Assembly: GCA_017964025.1 (NCBI GenBank)
Contig: JAGCST010000003.1
Span: 1 to 60,364, forward strand
DNA from: Candidatus Saccharimonadota bacterium
Lineage (GTDB): Bacteria > Patescibacteriota > Saccharimonadia > Saccharimonadales > Saccharimonadaceae
Direction: 5' to 3'
DNA length: 60,364 nt
The position numbers were made by a program, and so were the translations under genes. The notes below the pieces were generated by a model that was not told the DNA's origin, made no database searches, and saw only the letters and a list, made by a program, of their open reading frames with translations. Positions within the stretch are counted from its first letter, which is position 1; every line of letters starts with the position of its first letter. Of the stretch, positions 1 through 8,173 are shown piece after piece.

Positions 1-1698
1 ATCTACCACTGGATATCCAGCAATCACGCCACCAGCGAGAGTATCTTCGATACCTTTTTGTACTGGTTTGCGGTATTCTTGTGGCACCACACCACCCTTA
101 ATCTGGTCGATGAATTCAAAACCCTTCCCTGGTTCATTTGGCTCAAATTTAATCCAGACATCACCGTATTGACCACGGCCACCAGACTGTTTAATATGTT
201 TACCTTGTGCTTCTGCAGTACCACGAATGGTTTCACGATAGGCAACCTGAGGAGCACCAGTGTTGGCTTCGACATTATGTTCACGTTTCAAACGATCAAT
301 AATAATTTCAAGATGCAACTCGCCCATACCAGAAATAATGGTTTGGCCGGTTTCATCATCGGTATGTACACGGAAAGTTGGATCTTCTTCTGCCATCTTC
401 GAAAGACCAATACCCATCTTCTCTTGGTCAGCTTTAGTTTTTGGTTCTACCGCAATTGATACTGGTGGATCTGGGAATTCAATAGACTCTAGTAAGATAG
501 GATGAGCTGGTGCACATAGAGTTGTACCAGTTGTACAATTTTTGAGACCAACTACTGCCGCGATATCACCCGCACCAATTTCTGAAATATCTTTTCGGTC
601 ATTAGCATGCATACGCACTAAACGTCCAATTCTCTCTTTATCTCCAGTTGAAGCATTGAGAACCGTATCGCCAGATTTTAACTTACCAGCATAAACACGA
701 AGGAAGATTAATTTACCCACAAATGGATCAGTTGCAATCTTGAATGCAAGAGCAGTGAGAGGCTCTGAATTATCAGCCTTGCGTACAACCTGATCACCAG
801 TCTTAGGATCGGTGCCTACAGTTTGACCTTGATCACGATCGAGAGGCGATGGCAAATAATCAGTCATAAGATCAAGCACTTTTTCGACAATCACACCACG
901 ACCATCACCACCAGTTACCAAGAAGAAGTCACCATCAAGTACTCTTTTACGAAGCGCTGCTTTAAGTTCATCAACCGTAATAGCATCTTCACCTTCATTG
1001 AAATATTTATCCATCAAAGCCTCATCAGCTTGGACAGCTTCTTCTACCAACATTGAACGAGCATTTTTGGCTTTTTCTTTCATATCTTCAGGAATTTCAC
1101 CGACGGTAAGTTCATGATCAGCATAATCTTTGTAGGTATAAGCTTTCATGTCAATCAAATCAACTACACCGCAAATATCTTTTTCAAACCCAATCGGGAG
1201 ATGGATTGCTACTGCATTTTTCGACAAACGTTTATGAATCGACTCAAGAGATTTATAAAAATCGCCACCAATTTGATTAATTTTATTCACAAAACAAATA
1301 CGAGGTACACCATATTTAGTTGCTTGGCGCCACACCGTTTCGGATTGTGCTTCCACACCCATTTTCCCATCAAATACTACAACTGCGCCATCAAGCACAC
1401 GCAATGAACGTTCTACCTCTGCGGTAAAATCAATGTGTCCTGGGGTATCGATAATGTTGATTTGATGATTTTTCCAATAGACTGTCACTGCAGCAGAAGT
1501 AATCGTAATACCACGTTCTTTTTCCTGTTCCATCCAGTCAGTATCAGCACCACCAGTGCCACCTTTTACAAGGTCAATTTTATGCTTAAGCCCTGTACGA
1601 TATAGAATTGCTTCTGAGGTCGTCGTCTTACCTGCATCAATATGAGCAATAATCCCAATATTGCGAAGCTTGCTTAAATCTTTAATTTCAGTAGCCAT
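1..1698 (-). CDS. fusA: Elongation factor G, 3' end beyond window start
   Basis: Absent from ORF track (no stop in window). Manual translation from ATG at 1698: MATEIKDLSKLRNIGIIAHIDAGKTTT...DWMEQEKERGITITSAA...NIIDTPGHIDF; SD AAGGAG upstream. Confidence 0.97.
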   Translation of the reverse strand, partial: MATEIKDLSKLRNIGIIAHIDAGKTTTSEAILYRTGLKHKIDLVKGGTGGADTDWMEQEKERGITITSAAVTVYWKNHQINIIDTPGHIDFTAEVERSLRVLDGAVVVFDGKMGVEAQSETVWRQATKYGVPRICFVNKINQIGGDFYKSLESIHKRLSKNAVAIHLPIGFEKDICGVVDLIDMKAYTYKDYADHELTVGEIPEDMKEKAKNARSMLVEEAVQADEALMDKYFNEGEDAITVDELKAALRKRVLDGDFFLVTGGDGRGVIVEKVLDLMTDYLPSPLDRDQGQTVGTDPKTGDQVVRKADNSEPLTALAFKIATDPFVGKLIFLRVYAGKLKSGDTVLNASTGDKERIGRLVRMHANDRKDISEIGAGDIAAVVGLKNCTTGTTLCAPAHPILLESIEFPDPPVSIAVEPKTKADQEKMGIGLSKMAEEDPTFRVHTDDETGQTIISGMGELHLEIIIDRLKREHNVEANTGAPQVAYRETIRGTAEAQGKHIKQSGGRGQYGDVWIKFEPNEPGKGFEFIDQIKGGVVPQEYRKPVQKGIEDTLAGGVIAGYPVVD

Positions 1699-1823
1699 AT
1701 GCTCCTTTATTTTATAATATTATATTAATCCAACTTCTTAAGTTATTCACTCAAAAAGAAAGTACACTGGGATAATTATATCATAAAAATAAAAAATAAA
1801 ATAGATTTTACCCCCAATATCTT

Positions 1824-1852
1824 AAAAAATGCCGGCGCAAATGGGCGCCGGC
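1824..1852 (-). terminator. Intrinsic terminator of the ncRNA candidate
   Basis: Minus strand GCCGGCGC-CCATTT-GCGCCGGC followed by ATTTTTT. Confidence 0.85.
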
Positions 1853-1858
1853 AAATAT

Positions 1859-2039
1859 ATAGAAAAGAAAGACATTGCGTGGGCAATACTAGAGGATTTG
1901 TGAATAATTACAAACGAGCTTTATAAACATGGATATGAATAAAATAAATTAGGTTGCTGCTTGTTAAACGGAACCCGTCGGTTCGCTCTCCTAACGTTAT
2001 TATTATTTGTATCACCCCGCGGCGTCTTTTCTGTTCTAT
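1859..2039 (-). ncRNA. 6S RNA-like structured ncRNA (candidate)
   Basis: 181-nt rod: ATAGAACAGAAAAGAC pairs with GTCTTTCTTTTCTAT, GGGTGATAC pairs with GTATTGCCC, then an A-rich bubble (AAATAATAATAAC). Lies between a consensus promoter and a terminator; no credible ORF. Confidence 0.5.
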
Positions 2040-2127
2040 CCTATTAAGGAGCATGCCCACGACTGTCCTAGACAGTCATGGGCAAATCACATGACAACTC
2101 ACCCCAGTCCAATGAATCGTCTTCCAA

Positions 2128-2156
2128 ATTGTAGCATAAAGATAAAATGTTGTCAA
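2128..2156 (-). promoter_or_regulatory. Sigma70-type promoter driving the ncRNA candidate
   Basis: TTGACA-17 nt-TACAAT with TGn extension. Confidence 0.8.
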
Positions 2157-2270
2157 TGTTATATATTTTTTGAATACACTAGTAGACATTTTCCCCAATA
2201 AAGAAAGAACAATTTTCCTATCATTTTTATTAAACTTATGCTAAAATTAAATTAAGAAAATAGGAGGCAA

Positions 2271-2930
2271 ATGTTTTACCCTAGTCGCCAAGTTCTTGGT
2301 GATCAACTAGCCATGAAACTGACAGAATATCGCAATAACGATACAATTATTTTTTGTCTTAAGCGTAGTTCTCTACTTAGTTGTATTGAGCTTGCAACAC
2401 GTCTCCATGCCTATATTTACATTTTACAATATTCCGAGGTAGATGATCCTTATGATATCACTCGTCAACTTGGAGCAATTAAAACCGATGGCGGCTTTGT
2501 TTTAAATCCTGACATTACCAGAAATGAATACGAGTTTATTTGTGGCGATTTTTTAAATGTAGTTGAGCAACGCAAACAGGCTGCCTTTTCTAAAATCAAC
2601 GCCGAAAAAAATCTTAACCCTAGCTTTGACCCACGAGTTATCAATAATCGCAACATCATTATTTTTGCCGACATTTTAAAAACTACTTTTCCATTACAAA
2701 TCGCCATGGATATTTTAAAACCTTATTCTCCTGCCACTATCTATGGCGCTTTCGGAAACATTACAGTACCAGTGTCTGACAAAATGCAGCTTGAAACTGA
2801 CGGTTTAACTTATATGGACATTTTGCCGCACGCCCTTTTCGATGATAATCATTATTTTGATCAACCTGATACATATACCGAGGAGCAAAAAATTCAAATT
2901 GCTAATAATATTAGCCTCTATTGGGCTTAA
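2271..2930 (+). CDS. Degenerate phosphoribosyltransferase-like protein
   Basis: N-terminus MFYPSRQVLGDQLA and PRPP-loop-like RNIIIFADILKTT; SD AGGAGG. Confidence 0.6.
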   Translation: MFYPSRQVLGDQLAMKLTEYRNNDTIIFCLKRSSLLSCIELATRLHAYIYILQYSEVDDPYDITRQLGAIKTDGGFVLNPDITRNEYEFICGDFLNVVEQRKQAAFSKINAEKNLNPSFDPRVINNRNIIIFADILKTTFPLQIAMDILKPYSPATIYGAFGNITVPVSDKMQLETDGLTYMDILPHALFDDNHYFDQPDTYTEEQKIQIANNISLYWA

Positions 2931-2941
2931 GAAAGGAGAAG

Positions 2942-3895
2942 ATGGAAACTATTAACAAACTTATGAATGCCTATCAAACCAAAGTGGTTGGACAGGAAGA
3001 GCTTAGGCTGGCGCTTGTCGTAGCCCTTATTGCTGAAGGGCATGTACTCCTAGAATCTTTGCCAGGTCTTGCTAAGACCCTCGCAGCTAAAACTTTGGCC
3101 GAAGCTACTAATGGTAGTTTTTCACGTATTCAGTGTACGCCAGATTTATTGCCATCCGACATTATTGGCACGCAAATCTATAATTACAGTAAAGGCACTT
3201 TTGATACCAAAATTGGTCCAGTTTCCGCCAATTTTGTACTTCATGACGAAATTAACCGTTCTAGCGCCAAGACACAAAGCGCTATGCTAGAAGCAATGCA
3301 AGAGCGTCAAGTTTCAGTGGGTGGCGTTATGTTCCACATGCCAGACCCATTTATTGTTTTCGCAACCCAAAACCCAATCGAACAAGAAGGTACTTATGAA
3401 CTCCCTGAAGCTCAGCTTGATCGCTTCCTGCTCAAGGTGTTAGTCCCCTATCCTAAGCGTGATGAAGAACTTAAAATTTTGGATTATACTTTGTCAGGCC
3501 AAACTACTGAACCACTTCCCGACTCCGCAAAAGTATCTCTTGAAGAAATCAAACAACTCCAGAACGCTGCCAAATCAGTCAAAGTGGATGATTCCATTAA
3601 GAATTATATTACCAATATAGTGGCGGCCACCCGTGATGCGAAAACAGTTATCGGACCAGAACTTGCTAAATATGTCGACTATGGAGTATCACCTCGCGGA
3701 GCTATCGCATTACTCCGTGTCGCTCAAGTTTTAGCCTTGCTTCATAATCGTAATTATGTCACACCAGATGATGTTAAAGAATTACGCTATCCAGTTCTTC
3801 GTCATCGTATTATGTTGAATTTCGAAGCAGCTGCTGATGAAGTTCATTCAGAAGCTATCATTGATGCGATTTTTTCCAAGATTATAGCGCCGTAG
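2942..3895 (+). CDS. MoxR-family AAA+ ATPase
   Basis: GHVLLESLPGLAKT (Walker A), RIQCTPDLLPSDI, DEINR, ATQNPIEQEGTYELPEAQLDRF. Start moved to ATG at 2942 after SD AAGGAG. Confidence 0.95.
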   Translation: METINKLMNAYQTKVVGQEELRLALVVALIAEGHVLLESLPGLAKTLAAKTLAEATNGSFSRIQCTPDLLPSDIIGTQIYNYSKGTFDTKIGPVSANFVLHDEINRSSAKTQSAMLEAMQERQVSVGGVMFHMPDPFIVFATQNPIEQEGTYELPEAQLDRFLLKVLVPYPKRDEELKILDYTLSGQTTEPLPDSAKVSLEEIKQLQNAAKSVKVDDSIKNYITNIVAATRDAKTVIGPELAKYVDYGVSPRGAIALLRVAQVLALLHNRNYVTPDDVKELRYPVLRHRIMLNFEAAADEVHSEAIIDAIFSKIIAP

Positions 3896-3911
3896 CACCC
3901 ACATTCTGTAT

Positions 3912-3940
3912 ATTATAGCACAAAATAACATAAAAGTCAA
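3912..3940 (-). promoter_or_regulatory. Near-consensus promoter oriented antisense into moxR
   Basis: Minus strand TTGACT-17 nt-TATAAT with TGn extension, in the moxR/DUF58 spacer. Confidence 0.6.
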
Positions 3941-3955
3941 TTTTACAGGGAGAAA

Positions 3956-4843
3956 ATGTCAAGCCATCTCGTCAAAGTTAAAAAGAAAATGAGCATTTAC
4001 GCCAAACGACGCGTGCGTAATGTGCTCACTGGTAACTATGGCTCAGTATTTAAAGGCCGTGGTATGGATTTTGACGATTTACGTCCTTATGAATATGGTG
4101 ACGACGTCAAAGATATTGATTGGAAGGCTTCAGCACGCTCTCGTACGCCTATGATTAGAAGATATGTGGCAGTTCGCAAACATAACATTATGATCGTTGC
4201 AGATGCTGGTCGTAATATGGCCGCACTTTCTCCTTCTGGTGAAACTAAAGGCGCCATTGCAACTTTAGCTGCTGGCGTTATTGCGTATATTGCACAAAAA
4301 AATGACGATCTTGTTGGTATGGTGTTTGGGAATAGTAATGGCAACACTAAGTTTGCACTTAAAGAAGGCACTGCCCACATTGAAAACTTTCTCACTAAAT
4401 ACGAAAAATCTATTAATATCAAAGCAGACCAAGCAGATCTTAATGCTTTACTCAGTTATATTTCCAAAAATTTTCGTGAACGTATGTTTTTAATTATTAT
4501 CACCGATGTGTTCGGTGCCGCTAACATTTATCAAGATATTATTAGGCGCCTTCGCACTCGTCACGAACAAATGATCATTATGGTTGAAGATTCTGAGTTA
4601 ACCAACTCAAATTTTGTTAATTTTGAAGCTCGTGATATCACGGAAGATTTGCGTTTACCAGCTTTTATGCGCAAAGACCGTAATCTTAAAAAAGCCGAAA
4701 CCAATATGCGTCAATCACTCAAAACTACTACTCAACACGATTTGAAACGTTTAGGAGTCTGTAGTTGTAGTATTGATAGTTCTGATAATGTTATTCCAGC
4801 TATTTTTAAAATGCTAGAGGAGCAAAAACATGTTCGCCGTTAA
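3956..4843 (+). CDS. DUF58 domain protein (MoxR partner)
   Basis: FKGRGMDFDDLRPYEYGDDVKDIDWKASAR signature; directly follows moxR. Confidence 0.92.
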   Translation: MSSHLVKVKKKMSIYAKRRVRNVLTGNYGSVFKGRGMDFDDLRPYEYGDDVKDIDWKASARSRTPMIRRYVAVRKHNIMIVADAGRNMAALSPSGETKGAIATLAAGVIAYIAQKNDDLVGMVFGNSNGNTKFALKEGTAHIENFLTKYEKSINIKADQADLNALLSYISKNFRERMFLIIITDVFGAANIYQDIIRRLRTRHEQMIIMVEDSELTNSNFVNFEARDITEDLRLPAFMRKDRNLKKAETNMRQSLKTTTQHDLKRLGVCSCSIDSSDNVIPAIFKMLEEQKHVRR

Positions 4844-5405
4844 AATGTTTAGTGCTGCCCTTGCTAGCCCTAGCCTTATGCATGAACCAATGTATTATTC
4901 TATTGTCTGGTTCTTTTTTGGCATTCTATTTCTTGGCCTAATTTTATTAATTATTTTCTTTATCCTCTATACTACACGTAAAAAACCTATCAAATCACTT
5001 TCTAATCTTAAACCAGCTAAGCCTCAAATTAAAGATATTGCAGCTATCAGACAAAAATATTTACAAATGGTTGACGAAGTTGAACAGAGATTTGGCACAC
5101 GTAAGATTCGCGCCGCTAGAGCACACCAAGAATTGAGCTTAGTAGTACGCTTGTTTTATACAGAAGTAAGTGGTTTTCACGCTGAAGTATTAACATTAAG
5201 CGATATAAAACGTTCAAAAAATATTAAGCTCGCTAATTTAATAAATAAATATTACCCAGATGAATTTGATTGTCTGGAACATGGTTCGGTTCTTGATTCC
5301 GCTCGCAAGGCTCGTGAGTTGATTATGGATTCCGAAGCAGTTGCTAAACTTTCGTCTGTCAACAACCCAAATATTTCCCTACCGAATCAAGGAGGCAAAC
5401 AATGA
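4830..5405 (+). CDS. Single-pass membrane protein of the MoxR/vWA operon
   Basis: One hydrophobic helix, TLSDI motif, overlaps both neighbours; SD GAGGAG. Confidence 0.75.
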   Translation: MFAVKMFSAALASPSLMHEPMYYSIVWFFFGILFLGLILLIIFFILYTTRKKPIKSLSNLKPAKPQIKDIAAIRQKYLQMVDEVEQRFGTRKIRAARAHQELSLVVRLFYTEVSGFHAEVLTLSDIKRSKNIKLANLINKYYPDEFDCLEHGSVLDSARKARELIMDSEAVAKLSSVNNPNISLPNQGGKQ

Positions 5406-6430
5406 GACAATCATGGATTCTATTAGTAGCTTTATTTGGATTTATCGCAATTATTGGGATTGCTTTTTGGCAACAACGACAAAAAGCTCAACGTAAAATT
5501 TCTACTAAAAACGATTGCAAACCTTTAGCTAATACTAATAAAGTCAGAGCTTTACCAGAGTATAAAGCTGCCCTCAAAAAGTATCATCTCCTACTTATGG
5601 CTGCAGGCCTTTTGTTTATTGTAGTGTTTAGCTCTGTCGCAATTATTGCCGCACGACCAGTTTCGGTTACAGTTTCTAAACCAGAGTATGACAACCGTGA
5701 TATTATGCTCTGTCTTGATGTTAGCGGTTCGATGAATGAATATGTTAAGGAGCTTGTTGAATATTTCGCTGATCTCCTCGATGATTTTAAAGGTCAGCGT
5801 GTTGGCTTGACTCTATTTGATAGCGTTTATCTAACTGTTGCACCACTCAGTGATGACTATGATTTATTAGCAGATTTACTGAAAGACTTTAAAGACGACC
5901 CATTCGCTTATTCTTATGCTCTTTATAGCAGCAAAGTTGACGGTACATCAGCCATCGGGCGTGGCGTAGTCGGTTGTGTCAATGGTTTTGACAAATTAGA
6001 AGAGCAAGAACGTTCTCGTTCTATTATCCTAGCAACAGATAATGAGGATGCTGCCGGTAGAGTTGTTACTCTTACACAAGCCGCTAATTATGCTAAACGT
6101 TATAATATTGCCATCTATGGATTGTCCACCGGTGAATATCGTAGTCAAGAGCAAATAAATAACCCGACATCCACATACGGAGCAGATTATCTTGAAGAAT
6201 TCCGTGAAGCCACTCTAAATACTGGTGGTGCTTACTATGCTTTTTCTTCATGGAGTAACAATAATAACGTTGTCGTATCTGAAATCGTCGATCAGATCTT
6301 AGAACAAGAAGCTGCTCGCTATGAAGGGGCAGAAACACTAGTACGCAATGATTCACCTACTATTCCAATAATCATAGCAACAATATCTGCAATTTTATTC
6401 TTTATTGTAATCTGGAGGCTTAGTCTATGA
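5402..6430 (+). CDS. vWA domain membrane protein (BatA-like)
   Basis: MIDAS CLDVSGSM, GTSAIG, ILATDNE; N- and C-terminal TM helices. Confidence 0.9.
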   Translation: MRQSWILLVALFGFIAIIGIAFWQQRQKAQRKISTKNDCKPLANTNKVRALPEYKAALKKYHLLLMAAGLLFIVVFSSVAIIAARPVSVTVSKPEYDNRDIMLCLDVSGSMNEYVKELVEYFADLLDDFKGQRVGLTLFDSVYLTVAPLSDDYDLLADLLKDFKDDPFAYSYALYSSKVDGTSAIGRGVVGCVNGFDKLEEQERSRSIILATDNEDAAGRVVTLTQAANYAKRYNIAIYGLSTGEYRSQEQINNPTSTYGADYLEEFREATLNTGGAYYAFSSWSNNNNVVVSEIVDQILEQEAARYEGAETLVRNDSPTIPIIIATISAILFFIVIWRLSL

Positions 6431-7404
6431 AAAAGTTGATAAAATCTTTTGTTTTTCTGAAATCTCCAACCTTTTATCGTCGTTTAGGAATGCTAATTTT
6501 AACATTACTCATGCTCTTTCGTTTTACTATTTCTAGTGAAATATCAGAACGCGAAACATCCAACTTGAATGTTTGGTTTGTAGTAGATGCTACCGGCTCT
6601 ATGGTAGCTAAAGATGTAAAAAATGGTGATAAGCGCCGTTTCGAACAGGCACAAGATGATGCAGCCTATATTGTATCCAAACTTCCTGGCGCCAAATATA
6701 GTATTATAGTTCAAGATTTTTCAACTTATTCTGCTGTACCGATGACGTTTAATGCCGATGCAATAGTAGCAGCTGCTCCATATTTCAAACCAAAAGATTC
6801 ATATTATACTAAACCTTCTGATTTCACAGAAGTATTTGCATATACTGCTCAGCGATTGGTTAAATATAAAGAACGTTATCCAGAACGTAATAATGTCATA
6901 GTATTTATGAGCGATGGTGAAGACGTGTCAGGTAAATCTATTCAATTACCACAGAATTTACCAGGTTTACTAGATAAGGCAATTGTATTTGGATATGGTT
7001 CTACTAGTGGTAGTCTTATAGAAATGGTTGGCATTGTAGGAGAAAATGGGTCAGATTTCACTGCCATAACAAATGAATATGTAACATATTTTGGAGATGA
7101 TTCGAATATCTCTGTCGATGACAAACACCGCGTAATTTCTAAAATAAATGAAACGAATTTAAAACAGATTGCTAGTACGCTTCATGGCGATTATTATCAT
7201 CGTGAAGATAATAATATGCCGAATGCTGTTATTTCGGCGCTTGCTTCTGCTGCTAGTATTCAACACGACCCATCAGGCACTACAACTAATACTGGCGCTG
7301 AGACGTACTGGGTTTTCGCTATTCTTTTACTTATTTTACTGGCTTGGGAAGGTGAAGATGTTTTAGCGCGAGTATTATCAGAAAGGAGTAAGAAAGATGT
7401 CTGA
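6427..7404 (+). CDS. vWA domain membrane protein (BatB-like)
   Basis: VVDATGSMVAKD, FMSDGED, FGYGSTSG, INETNLKQIA; flanking TM helices. Confidence 0.88.
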   Translation: MKKLIKSFVFLKSPTFYRRLGMLILTLLMLFRFTISSEISERETSNLNVWFVVDATGSMVAKDVKNGDKRRFEQAQDDAAYIVSKLPGAKYSIIVQDFSTYSAVPMTFNADAIVAAAPYFKPKDSYYTKPSDFTEVFAYTAQRLVKYKERYPERNNVIVFMSDGEDVSGKSIQLPQNLPGLLDKAIVFGYGSTSGSLIEMVGIVGENGSDFTAITNEYVTYFGDDSNISVDDKHRVISKINETNLKQIASTLHGDYYHREDNNMPNAVISALASAASIQHDPSGTTTNTGAETYWVFAILLLILLAWEGEDVLARVLSERSKKDV

Positions 7405-8173
7405 ATTTAATTTGGATTTATTAAATCAAGATAAAATTCGTTTTAAAAAACGTCGTAGACTATTTCTTTACACTTTAGTGCCACTTATAATTCTAATACT
7501 TTCTACAATATTTTTCCTCCGCACTGGTATCTATAATATTATCTATTCAACTGGCATTGCAGGTGAAAGTTATGGATTGCCAGCTGTTGCAACCAAACTC
7601 CAGATGGTTGGAAATTTAATTGAACCGTATTTACCATATTATAATAATGGCTATCTTAAGCTTATTCAAGCCGAATCGCGTGAAGATTTGGTAGCAGCTG
7701 AGACGGAATTTCGTGAAAGTCTCAAACATAATCCGCCCGAAGAGCGTCTTTGCGCTATTTATGGCAATTTATCGTATTCGATTGAGCTGCAAGCTGATCT
7801 ATTATTTAATAATCAACAATATAATGACGCTCTAGTTTCTTATAATCAGGCAGAATCATTACTTTTTGAAAATAATTGTGCTAGCAAAGATGACAATCAG
7901 ACTGGTAAAGACGAACAATCAGAAGCAGCTAAGGATCGCATTGAAGAGAAGCGTCGCGAAGCTGTTGATGCAGCAAACAACAATAGTGATCCCAGCAATA
8001 ACAATGGTAATGGCAATCAAGGCGGTGATCAAGAAATATCTGAAAGCCAGTTGCAAGAAATCCAAGATCAACAGGAAGAAATCAATAACCAAGCCGCCGG
8101 CAATCCATACCAAAGCCATGGACCGAACACAGGTGGTGGCGGTAGTAGTAATTTTGGCGAACCTAATTTTTAA
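7397..8173 (+). CDS. Membrane-anchored TPR-like protein with Gln/Asn/Gly-rich tail (BatC-like)
   Basis: N-terminal TM, helical repeats (YYNNG, YNDALVSYNQA), low-complexity C-terminus; last gene of the operon. Confidence 0.65.
   Translation: MSEFNLDLLNQDKIRFKKRRRLFLYTLVPLIILILSTIFFLRTGIYNIIYSTGIAGESYGLPAVATKLQMVGNLIEPYLPYYNNGYLKLIQAESREDLVAAETEFRESLKHNPPEERLCAIYGNLSYSIELQADLLFNNQQYNDALVSYNQAESLLFENNCASKDDNQTGKDEQSEAAKDRIEEKRREAVDAANNNSDPSNNNGNGNQGGDQEISESQLQEIQDQQEEINNQAAGNPYQSHGPNTGGGGSSNFGEPNF

Follow-up and report, generated by a model that had tools for sequence, protein, structure and literature searches.

A clade-limited structured RNA family upstream of fusA in gut Saccharibacteria

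The region upstream of fusA in a Saccharibacteria genome holds what is very probably a real, functional RNA gene, and likely a transcribed one that stands alone and specifies a structured small RNA of ~300 nt. The element stands for a new family of structured RNA, limited to one clade and of a general kind that is known, and it is neither the cell's 6S RNA nor a switch. It lies on the minus strand of the window (the whole 60,364-nt stretch analysed, contig C20 of host assembly G000, which comprises 705 kb in 51 contigs and is 91% complete), between fusA (1698-1) and a divergent ORF of 219 aa. The family counts 13 sequences, from 10 genomes of the genus and 3 metagenome contigs, and every copy is found directly upstream of the fusA promoter. 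A sequence-only reading of this DNA had proposed an independent structured non-coding unit, a view borne out by the element's own promoter and terminator, by covarying homologues upstream of fusA and by the lack of a conserved ORF, and for these reasons a new ncRNA family fits. Neither the element nor the compact 6S RNA considered below was described in the open-access literature searched; subscription papers and the supplementary tables of large ncRNA motif screens could hold either.

Anatomy and conservation of the element

The promoter and the terminator stem with its U tail lie on the minus strand at 2156-2128 and 1853-1830, where the sequence-only reading had placed them (Table 1). Among the 7 sites in 1000-3500 that look like promoters this one is the best, and because shuffled sequence yields a mean of 8.4 such sites, the match carries little weight by itself. 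Between promoter and terminator the long closing stem anticipated for the core at 2039-1859 is clear: positions 2039-2012 pair with 1888-1859, with 26 expected end-to-end pairs as compared to 4.8 in shuffled sequences, and the fold of the core (z -3.7) and of the whole unit (z -7.0) is matched by 0/200 shuffles. The antisense folds equally well or better in 7/11 sequences, so whole-core folding energy cannot tell the strand; both the promoter and the U tail are on the minus strand.

Table 1. Features of the element and of the adjoining fusA leader, in window coordinates
Feature	Coordinates	Strand	Conservation among homologues
Sigma70-type promoter: -35 TTGACA (2156-2151), 17 nt, -10 TACAAT (2133-2128); predicted start ~2121	2128..2156	-	TTGAC[AT]-17-TAnnRT in 13/13
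Leader hairpin 1	2093..2121	-	Sequence differs, fold kept
Leader hairpin 2, 14 bp	2054..2084	-	Sequence rewritten, fold kept; missing in G006
Linker GCUCCUUAA, mostly unpaired; complement of the fusA Shine-Dalgarno AAGGAGC	2044..2052	-	
Closing stem, purine-rich 5' strand	2012..2039	-	
Palindrome UAACGUUA in 5' linker	1992..1999	-	AACGTT at this place in 9/13
Hairpin GAACC-GACG-GGUUC, GACG tetraloop closed by C-G	1971..1984	-	Stem 5-9 bp, length and pairs vary; 12/13
Motif UAAUUAUUC in 3' linker, partly unpaired	1902..1910	-	Conserved; exact in 9/13
Closing stem, pyrimidine-rich 3' strand	1859..1888	-	
Intrinsic terminator and U tail	1824..1853	-	Compensatory changes
Neighbour, outside the RNA: fusA extended -10 (1783-1775), leader motif (1757-1748), Shine-Dalgarno AAGGAGC (1707-1701)	1701..1783	-	

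Across the family the sequence drifts, with promoter, closing stem and terminator preserved. The closing stem, of 16-29 bp in a core of 166-211 nt, beats all 40 shuffles in 13/13 sequences, including G261, G098, G215, G006, G192 and G063, where most of its sequence has changed. This support is counted per sequence and is not column covariation, which is uncountable for the closing stem because the divergent members align poorly. Covariation upstream of fusA, put forward as a check on the sequence-only reading, is present among the six closest homologues, where 16/76 predicted pairs differ in both partners, most of them in leader hairpin 2 and the terminator. Two leader hairpins are found in 11 sequences, including the first hairpin (2121-2093) that the sequence-only reading had overlooked; the leader of G192 is 173 nt long and that of G006 is absent.

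Inside the closing stem, conservation is confined to short motifs, and the rest of the loop drifts with no conserved helix; a third helix within the loop was considered and is significant in G011 only. The GACG tetraloop hairpin is absent only from G063. The GCTCCTT sequence just ahead of the core is exact in 10/13 and degenerate in G006, G192 and G063, TAATTATTC is exact in 9/13, and neither the AACGTT palindrome nor the 3' motif is present in G215. The UAAUUAUUC motif contains the palindrome UAAUUA and overlaps a TATAAT-like hexamer (TGTAAT in G000). An A-rich bubble with a 3' side hairpin, TTTGT/ACAAA, had also been proposed; the hairpin appears in the G000 centroid structure, but its pairing is missing from the aligned homologues. 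Across homologues the interior is a large open loop with one short hairpin, not just a bubble with a second arm.

The proposal of two mutually exclusive folds does not survive. The 14-bp leader hairpin (2084-2054) exists, and its CGTGGGCA segment (2061-2054) is indeed complementary to TGCCCACG (1885-1878) near the 3' end of the core. Forcing these pairs costs +23 kcal/mol; their probability is ~0, and that of the leader hairpin 0.83-1.0. Of 200 shuffles, 21 give an 8-nt complement between leader and core, the other 10 homologues tested have complements at chance level only, and the CGTGGGCA complement, like the TTTGT/ACAAA hairpin, is specific to G000. A riboswitch or attenuator leader with mutually exclusive folds was rejected on the energy of the alternative helix and on its absence from those 10 homologues.

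The sequence-only reading also saw no Shine-Dalgarno-led ORF. One 50-aa frame starting with GTG (2060-1908) does have a weak Shine-Dalgarno sequence and is not conserved, and no small ORF led by a Shine-Dalgarno sequence is shared, on either strand, by the 9 homologues scanned; a type I toxin mRNA or small-protein gene was discarded on this account. Rfam models give two tRNAs only in the window, nothing convincing at E<=10 in 1700-2270, and nothing at E<=5 on six homologue loci. Identity with tmRNA or RNase P RNA was ruled out, since both of these are found on contig C2 of G000. The tmRNA (G000:C2:25439-25791) scores 99.7 bits with Rfam, yet is missed by ARAGORN.

Contigs of a bovine gut metatranscriptome, the rumen run X20, offer a hint of expression, and a hint only, as they come from one study, carry no information on strand or ends, and could reflect DNA carry-over. 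A 160-nt contig of depth 10.8 covers 1946-2105 with one mismatch, and a second, of 153 nt, matches 2008-2046 with three mismatches, its loose end resembling a relative's AACGTT linker and hairpin start. Positions 2176-3099 and the 3' third of the element are uncovered, which contig data cannot turn into evidence.

A compact 6S RNA at another locus

Of the two identities offered by the sequence-only reading, a divergent 6S RNA or a new ncRNA class, the second fits and the first falls as far as the cell's own 6S is concerned. That the element is not the orthologous 6S is close to certain, because an orthologous 6S lies elsewhere in the genome and the lineage 6S model finds no match on the element. 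Sub-threshold matches to RF00013 (28.7-39.6 bits, cut-off 46.4) are present in 5/101 genomes of the order; they are 132-164 nt long, share GGGAG and CACCCACCUG with the Rfam consensus, and have an M50 protease gene, tRNA-Pro and RNase H nearby. The equivalent site in G000, C2:18482-18613 (L019 1483-1614), holds such an RNA of ~130 nt directly after a TATAAT. Model R1, built from the five sub-threshold sequences, scores 25.8 bits at that site and matches 58/121 genomes of the genus at E<=0.1. The best 30 R1 matches and G000 all lie within ~1.5 kb of the protease and/or the RNase H gene (28 and 30 of 31), and the locus holds an RNA other than the element in G000 and in 31/31 inspected matches.

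The compact 6S (L009-L013, L020-L049) is highly conserved in the genus, with CCUGAAUAAUC, GGGA, a CCGUGG loop and ACCCACC. It scores below the Rfam cut-off, so that Rfam misses the RNA on C2, and the stop-to-stop frame of the NUDIX/RNase H gene runs over it in G000, such that gene calls from the first Met would hide it. All 10 carriers of the element have an R1 match elsewhere in the genome; the 8 inspected all have the motifs, and the matches in G158 and G063 have E values of 0.24 and 0.064. On the element itself, R1 finds nothing in six loci (the element and five homologues) at E<=10 with filters off, the genus 6S HMM gives no significant match on either strand (best E 0.37), and the lineage 6S motifs CCUGAA, GGGA and ACCCACC are lacking. 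An Rfam search for 6S, another check proposed with the sequence-only reading, likewise returns no RF00013 match at E<=10 in 1700-2270 or at E<=5 on six homologue loci, which is weak evidence, the true 6S of this genome being invisible to Rfam as well.

A second, non-orthologous 6S-like decoy, in which the closing stem would mimic downstream DNA and a -10-like hexamer in the 3' linker would hold sigma-RNAP, is unlikely. It is retained because Rfam misses the C2 RNA, because of that hexamer, and because a cut-down 6S is active in vitro: Bacillus subtilis 6S-1 is reported to remain functional when truncated to its bubble with a pair of short arms (PMC8876501). The element resembles 6S/SsrS RNA (RF00013, including the compact Saccharibacteria form) in being an independent sigma70-type unit with a core of similar size, a long imperfect closing stem, AU-rich single-stranded linkers and a candidate -10-like hexamer on the 3' side. 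The hexamer preceding TATTC in 11 homologues is TATAAT in 5, CATAAT in 2, TGTAAT in 2, ATTAAT in 1 and none in 1, a pattern noticed post hoc in AU-rich sequence. Against a decoy stand the G at the key A(-11) position in G000 and G006, the separate 6S at another locus, with which the element coexists, the missing GGGA and ACCCACC motifs and the lack of a significant R1 or genus 6S HMM match on either strand. Moreover, the far side of the bubble has no conserved closing helix: an apical arm joining the two far sides beats shuffles in 1/10, and folds differ among homologues. Unlike 6S, the element also has 5' hairpins and a terminator, and is limited to one branch.

Two further relations to 6S were rejected. 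A plus-strand or circularly permuted 6S has no model match on either strand, the GACG hairpin outweighs the alternative pairing tested, and it is the minus strand that has the promoter and U tail. For an RNA antisense to the 6S bubble (UAAUUAUUCA against UGAAUAAUC), an 8-nt match occurs in 21-35/100 shuffles, and the duplexes are not consistently more stable than those of shuffled sequence.

Candidate modes of action

The RNA is likely to work in trans, by way of a small number of exposed motifs. The preferred reading, a tentative one that falls somewhat short of probable, is of a self-associating, Hfq-independent, trans-acting anti-Shine-Dalgarno small RNA. The 5' hairpins, closing stem and terminator would shield the RNA from nucleases, the GACG loop and the palindromes would let two copies pair, and the unpaired GCUCCUU linker would pair with Shine-Dalgarno sequences of the AAGGAG type, dampening translation initiation without Hfq; fusA, next door, would be a strong candidate target. 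All three loop motifs are self-complementary, with the linker palindromes not significant singly (four tests against shuffles gave p 0.05-0.59). The GCTCCTT segment, 49-97% unpaired, forms 7-9 nt of pairing with the fusA Shine-Dalgarno of its own genome in 8/10 tested; in G006 and G192 the anti-Shine-Dalgarno is degenerate and forms no useful duplex. For linker pairing in G000, fusA ranks 8/640 among start regions, seven of which pair better, and by a crude call from first-Met starts AAGGAGC stands ahead of 6/644 long ORFs and AAGGAG ahead of 100. A PF17209 search did not find Hfq in G000, a genome that is 91% complete.

Hfq-independent anti-Shine-Dalgarno sRNAs of Gram-positive bacteria, of the RsaE and RNAIII type, use C-rich unpaired seeds. 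The element is like them in having its own promoter and terminator, a structured body and a candidate unpaired CU-rich seed against the Shine-Dalgarno, and in that no Hfq was found; it differs in that its seed is lost in 3/13 and in that it adds a long end-to-end stem and the GACG hairpin. For self-association, PMC516450 describes GACG tetraloops as dimer-linkage elements of retroviral RNA, and the hairpins of alpha- and gammaretroviral leaders resemble the element in pairing a conserved GACG tetraloop hairpin with nearby palindromes. The resemblance is at the level of motifs only, the element being a bacterial chromosomal gene and its dimerisation a candidate property. ROOL, GOLLD and OLE are structured, self-assembling bacterial RNAs of unclear function that belong to the bacterial ncRNAs known to make homo-oligomers (PMC12286853); they serve as a model for the idea of self-association, although they are far larger and more ornate than the element, which has no Rfam match. 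Drawn together, these parallels give a candidate Hfq-free RNA with a retrovirus-like GACG kissing-loop dimer and palindromic linkers, acting as an anti-Shine-Dalgarno brake on EF-G and on further messages headed by AAGGAG, in an epibiont of reduced genome that has retained a minimal 6S of 130 nt as well; that so complete a picture holds in every part is quite unlikely.

Short invariant motifs inside an otherwise drifting loop could instead point to a protein decoy or scaffold working through the GACG hairpin and palindromes, or to palindromes that are operator sites in DNA, and of the 9 GACG-type stems in G000 the element's is the sole one outside a long ORF. Such a role is rather unlikely: no partner protein has been identified, and a closing stem and terminator with G-U pairs favour a role as RNA over a DNA site. 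A LexA-type box of the form GAAC-N4-GTTC was rejected as an explanation of the hairpin, as it fits just 5/11 hairpins.

The position of all copies directly upstream of fusA, on the same strand and with 109-183 nt from terminator to start in 10 measured, together with the 7-9 nt complement, would also suit a cis-acting attenuator or leader, in which terminator read-through puts GCUCCUU onto the fusA Shine-Dalgarno within one transcript. This arrangement is improbable, as both carriers and non-carriers have an extended -10 and a leader that belong to fusA itself, the folds show no conserved antiterminator, and the switch of the sequence-only reading fails. The fusA leader contains a conserved motif, TTTTG(T)AGYGTR (1757-1748, minus strand), that a loose pattern finds in 58/90 upstream regions (L054-L143) and 4 times in the G000 genome; it is possibly an autoregulatory or S7-type site. 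The EF-G encoded by fusA has NKIN instead of NKxD, and a TGGDGRG loop.

Distribution, setting and significance

Carriers number 10 of ~248 genus genomes examined sensitively, a lower bound because searches over >40 genomes ran with stricter filters. BLAST against 369 genomes of the genus found G011 and G250 besides G000, and L014-L016 came from a pattern scan of metagenomes. When 90 regions upstream of fusA, each ~1-1.5 kb long and a few of them truncated at a contig end, were searched with profiles, 7 carriers emerged: G000, G011 and the newly found G261, G098, G215, G006 and G192; model R2 was too narrow and missed G006. A sequence-only search model run over 160 entries (157 new) added G158 (E 2e-23) and G063 (E 4e-6), and weak matches to model R3 in G141, G143, G199 and G283 were dropped, as they lie away from fusA and either overlap ORFs or lack the features. 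A strict GTDB-wide pattern has 5 matches, 3 of them known homologues and 2 without a family-HMM match, and a family-level pattern has outside the genus one match (G727), without an HMM match, against 5 control matches. The family is limited to one branch of tiny gut Saccharibacteria; the sequencing runs that contain this stretch of the window are gut metagenomes, bovine or sheep where a host is stated. The eight carriers then known share 80-90% fusA DNA identity, and on a 50-genome fusA DNA tree they cluster, needing 2 changes as compared to a shuffled mean of 7.6 (0/500 as low). The element may have had one origin; fusA is physically linked to it.

The gap between gatB and fusA is variable, with many different inserts in relatives. 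In G000 an insert (2271-8173) separates gatB from the RNA; it consists of the 219-aa ORF, which has no Pfam match, and the MoxR/vWA-type cluster that this ORF precedes, with gatB farther on. The first gene of the MoxR-side insert also flanks the RNA in G261, G192 and L015, and gatB directly abuts the RNA in G011, G250, G098, G215, G006, G158, G063, L014 and L016. In a relative's contig from run X14 (record 2, aligned to 1724-2261), the fusA leader and the leader of the neighbouring gene are joined by 246 letters other than the element, and thus the gene order can exist without it. Other long, terminator-ended stretches without a convincing ORF lie upstream of fusA in L081 (G013), L061 (G168) and L070 (G001); by HMM they are unrelated to the family and may be other RNAs. 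A second perfect, AU-rich hairpin of varying sequence directly follows the terminator in L014, L015, L083, L085 and L192.

A repeat or mobile element was ruled out by the single copy in G000 and by 0 matches of two strict patterns to viral contigs, and a retron ncRNA (msr-msd) was rejected, as G000 has no RVT_1 match and the neighbours are fusA and a Pfam-less ORF followed by MoxR. A selfish or decayed insertion with no cellular role would accord with the few carriers and the many inserts of the gap, but is very improbable given the single copy in G000, the shared locus of all carriers, their clustering on the tree, a structure kept over deep sequence divergence, and the lack of viral-contig matches and of a reverse transcriptase in G000.

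Little is known about regulation in Saccharibacteria, whose genomes are very small. What the element means for them is limited by its narrow distribution, and its function is a prediction. That a 0.7-Mb genome retains, under selection, an RNA gene of 300 nt points to regulation by RNA in which Hfq plays no part. A conserved 6S of ~130 nt that Rfam misses makes the parking of RNA polymerase by a minimal 6S testable in these epibionts.
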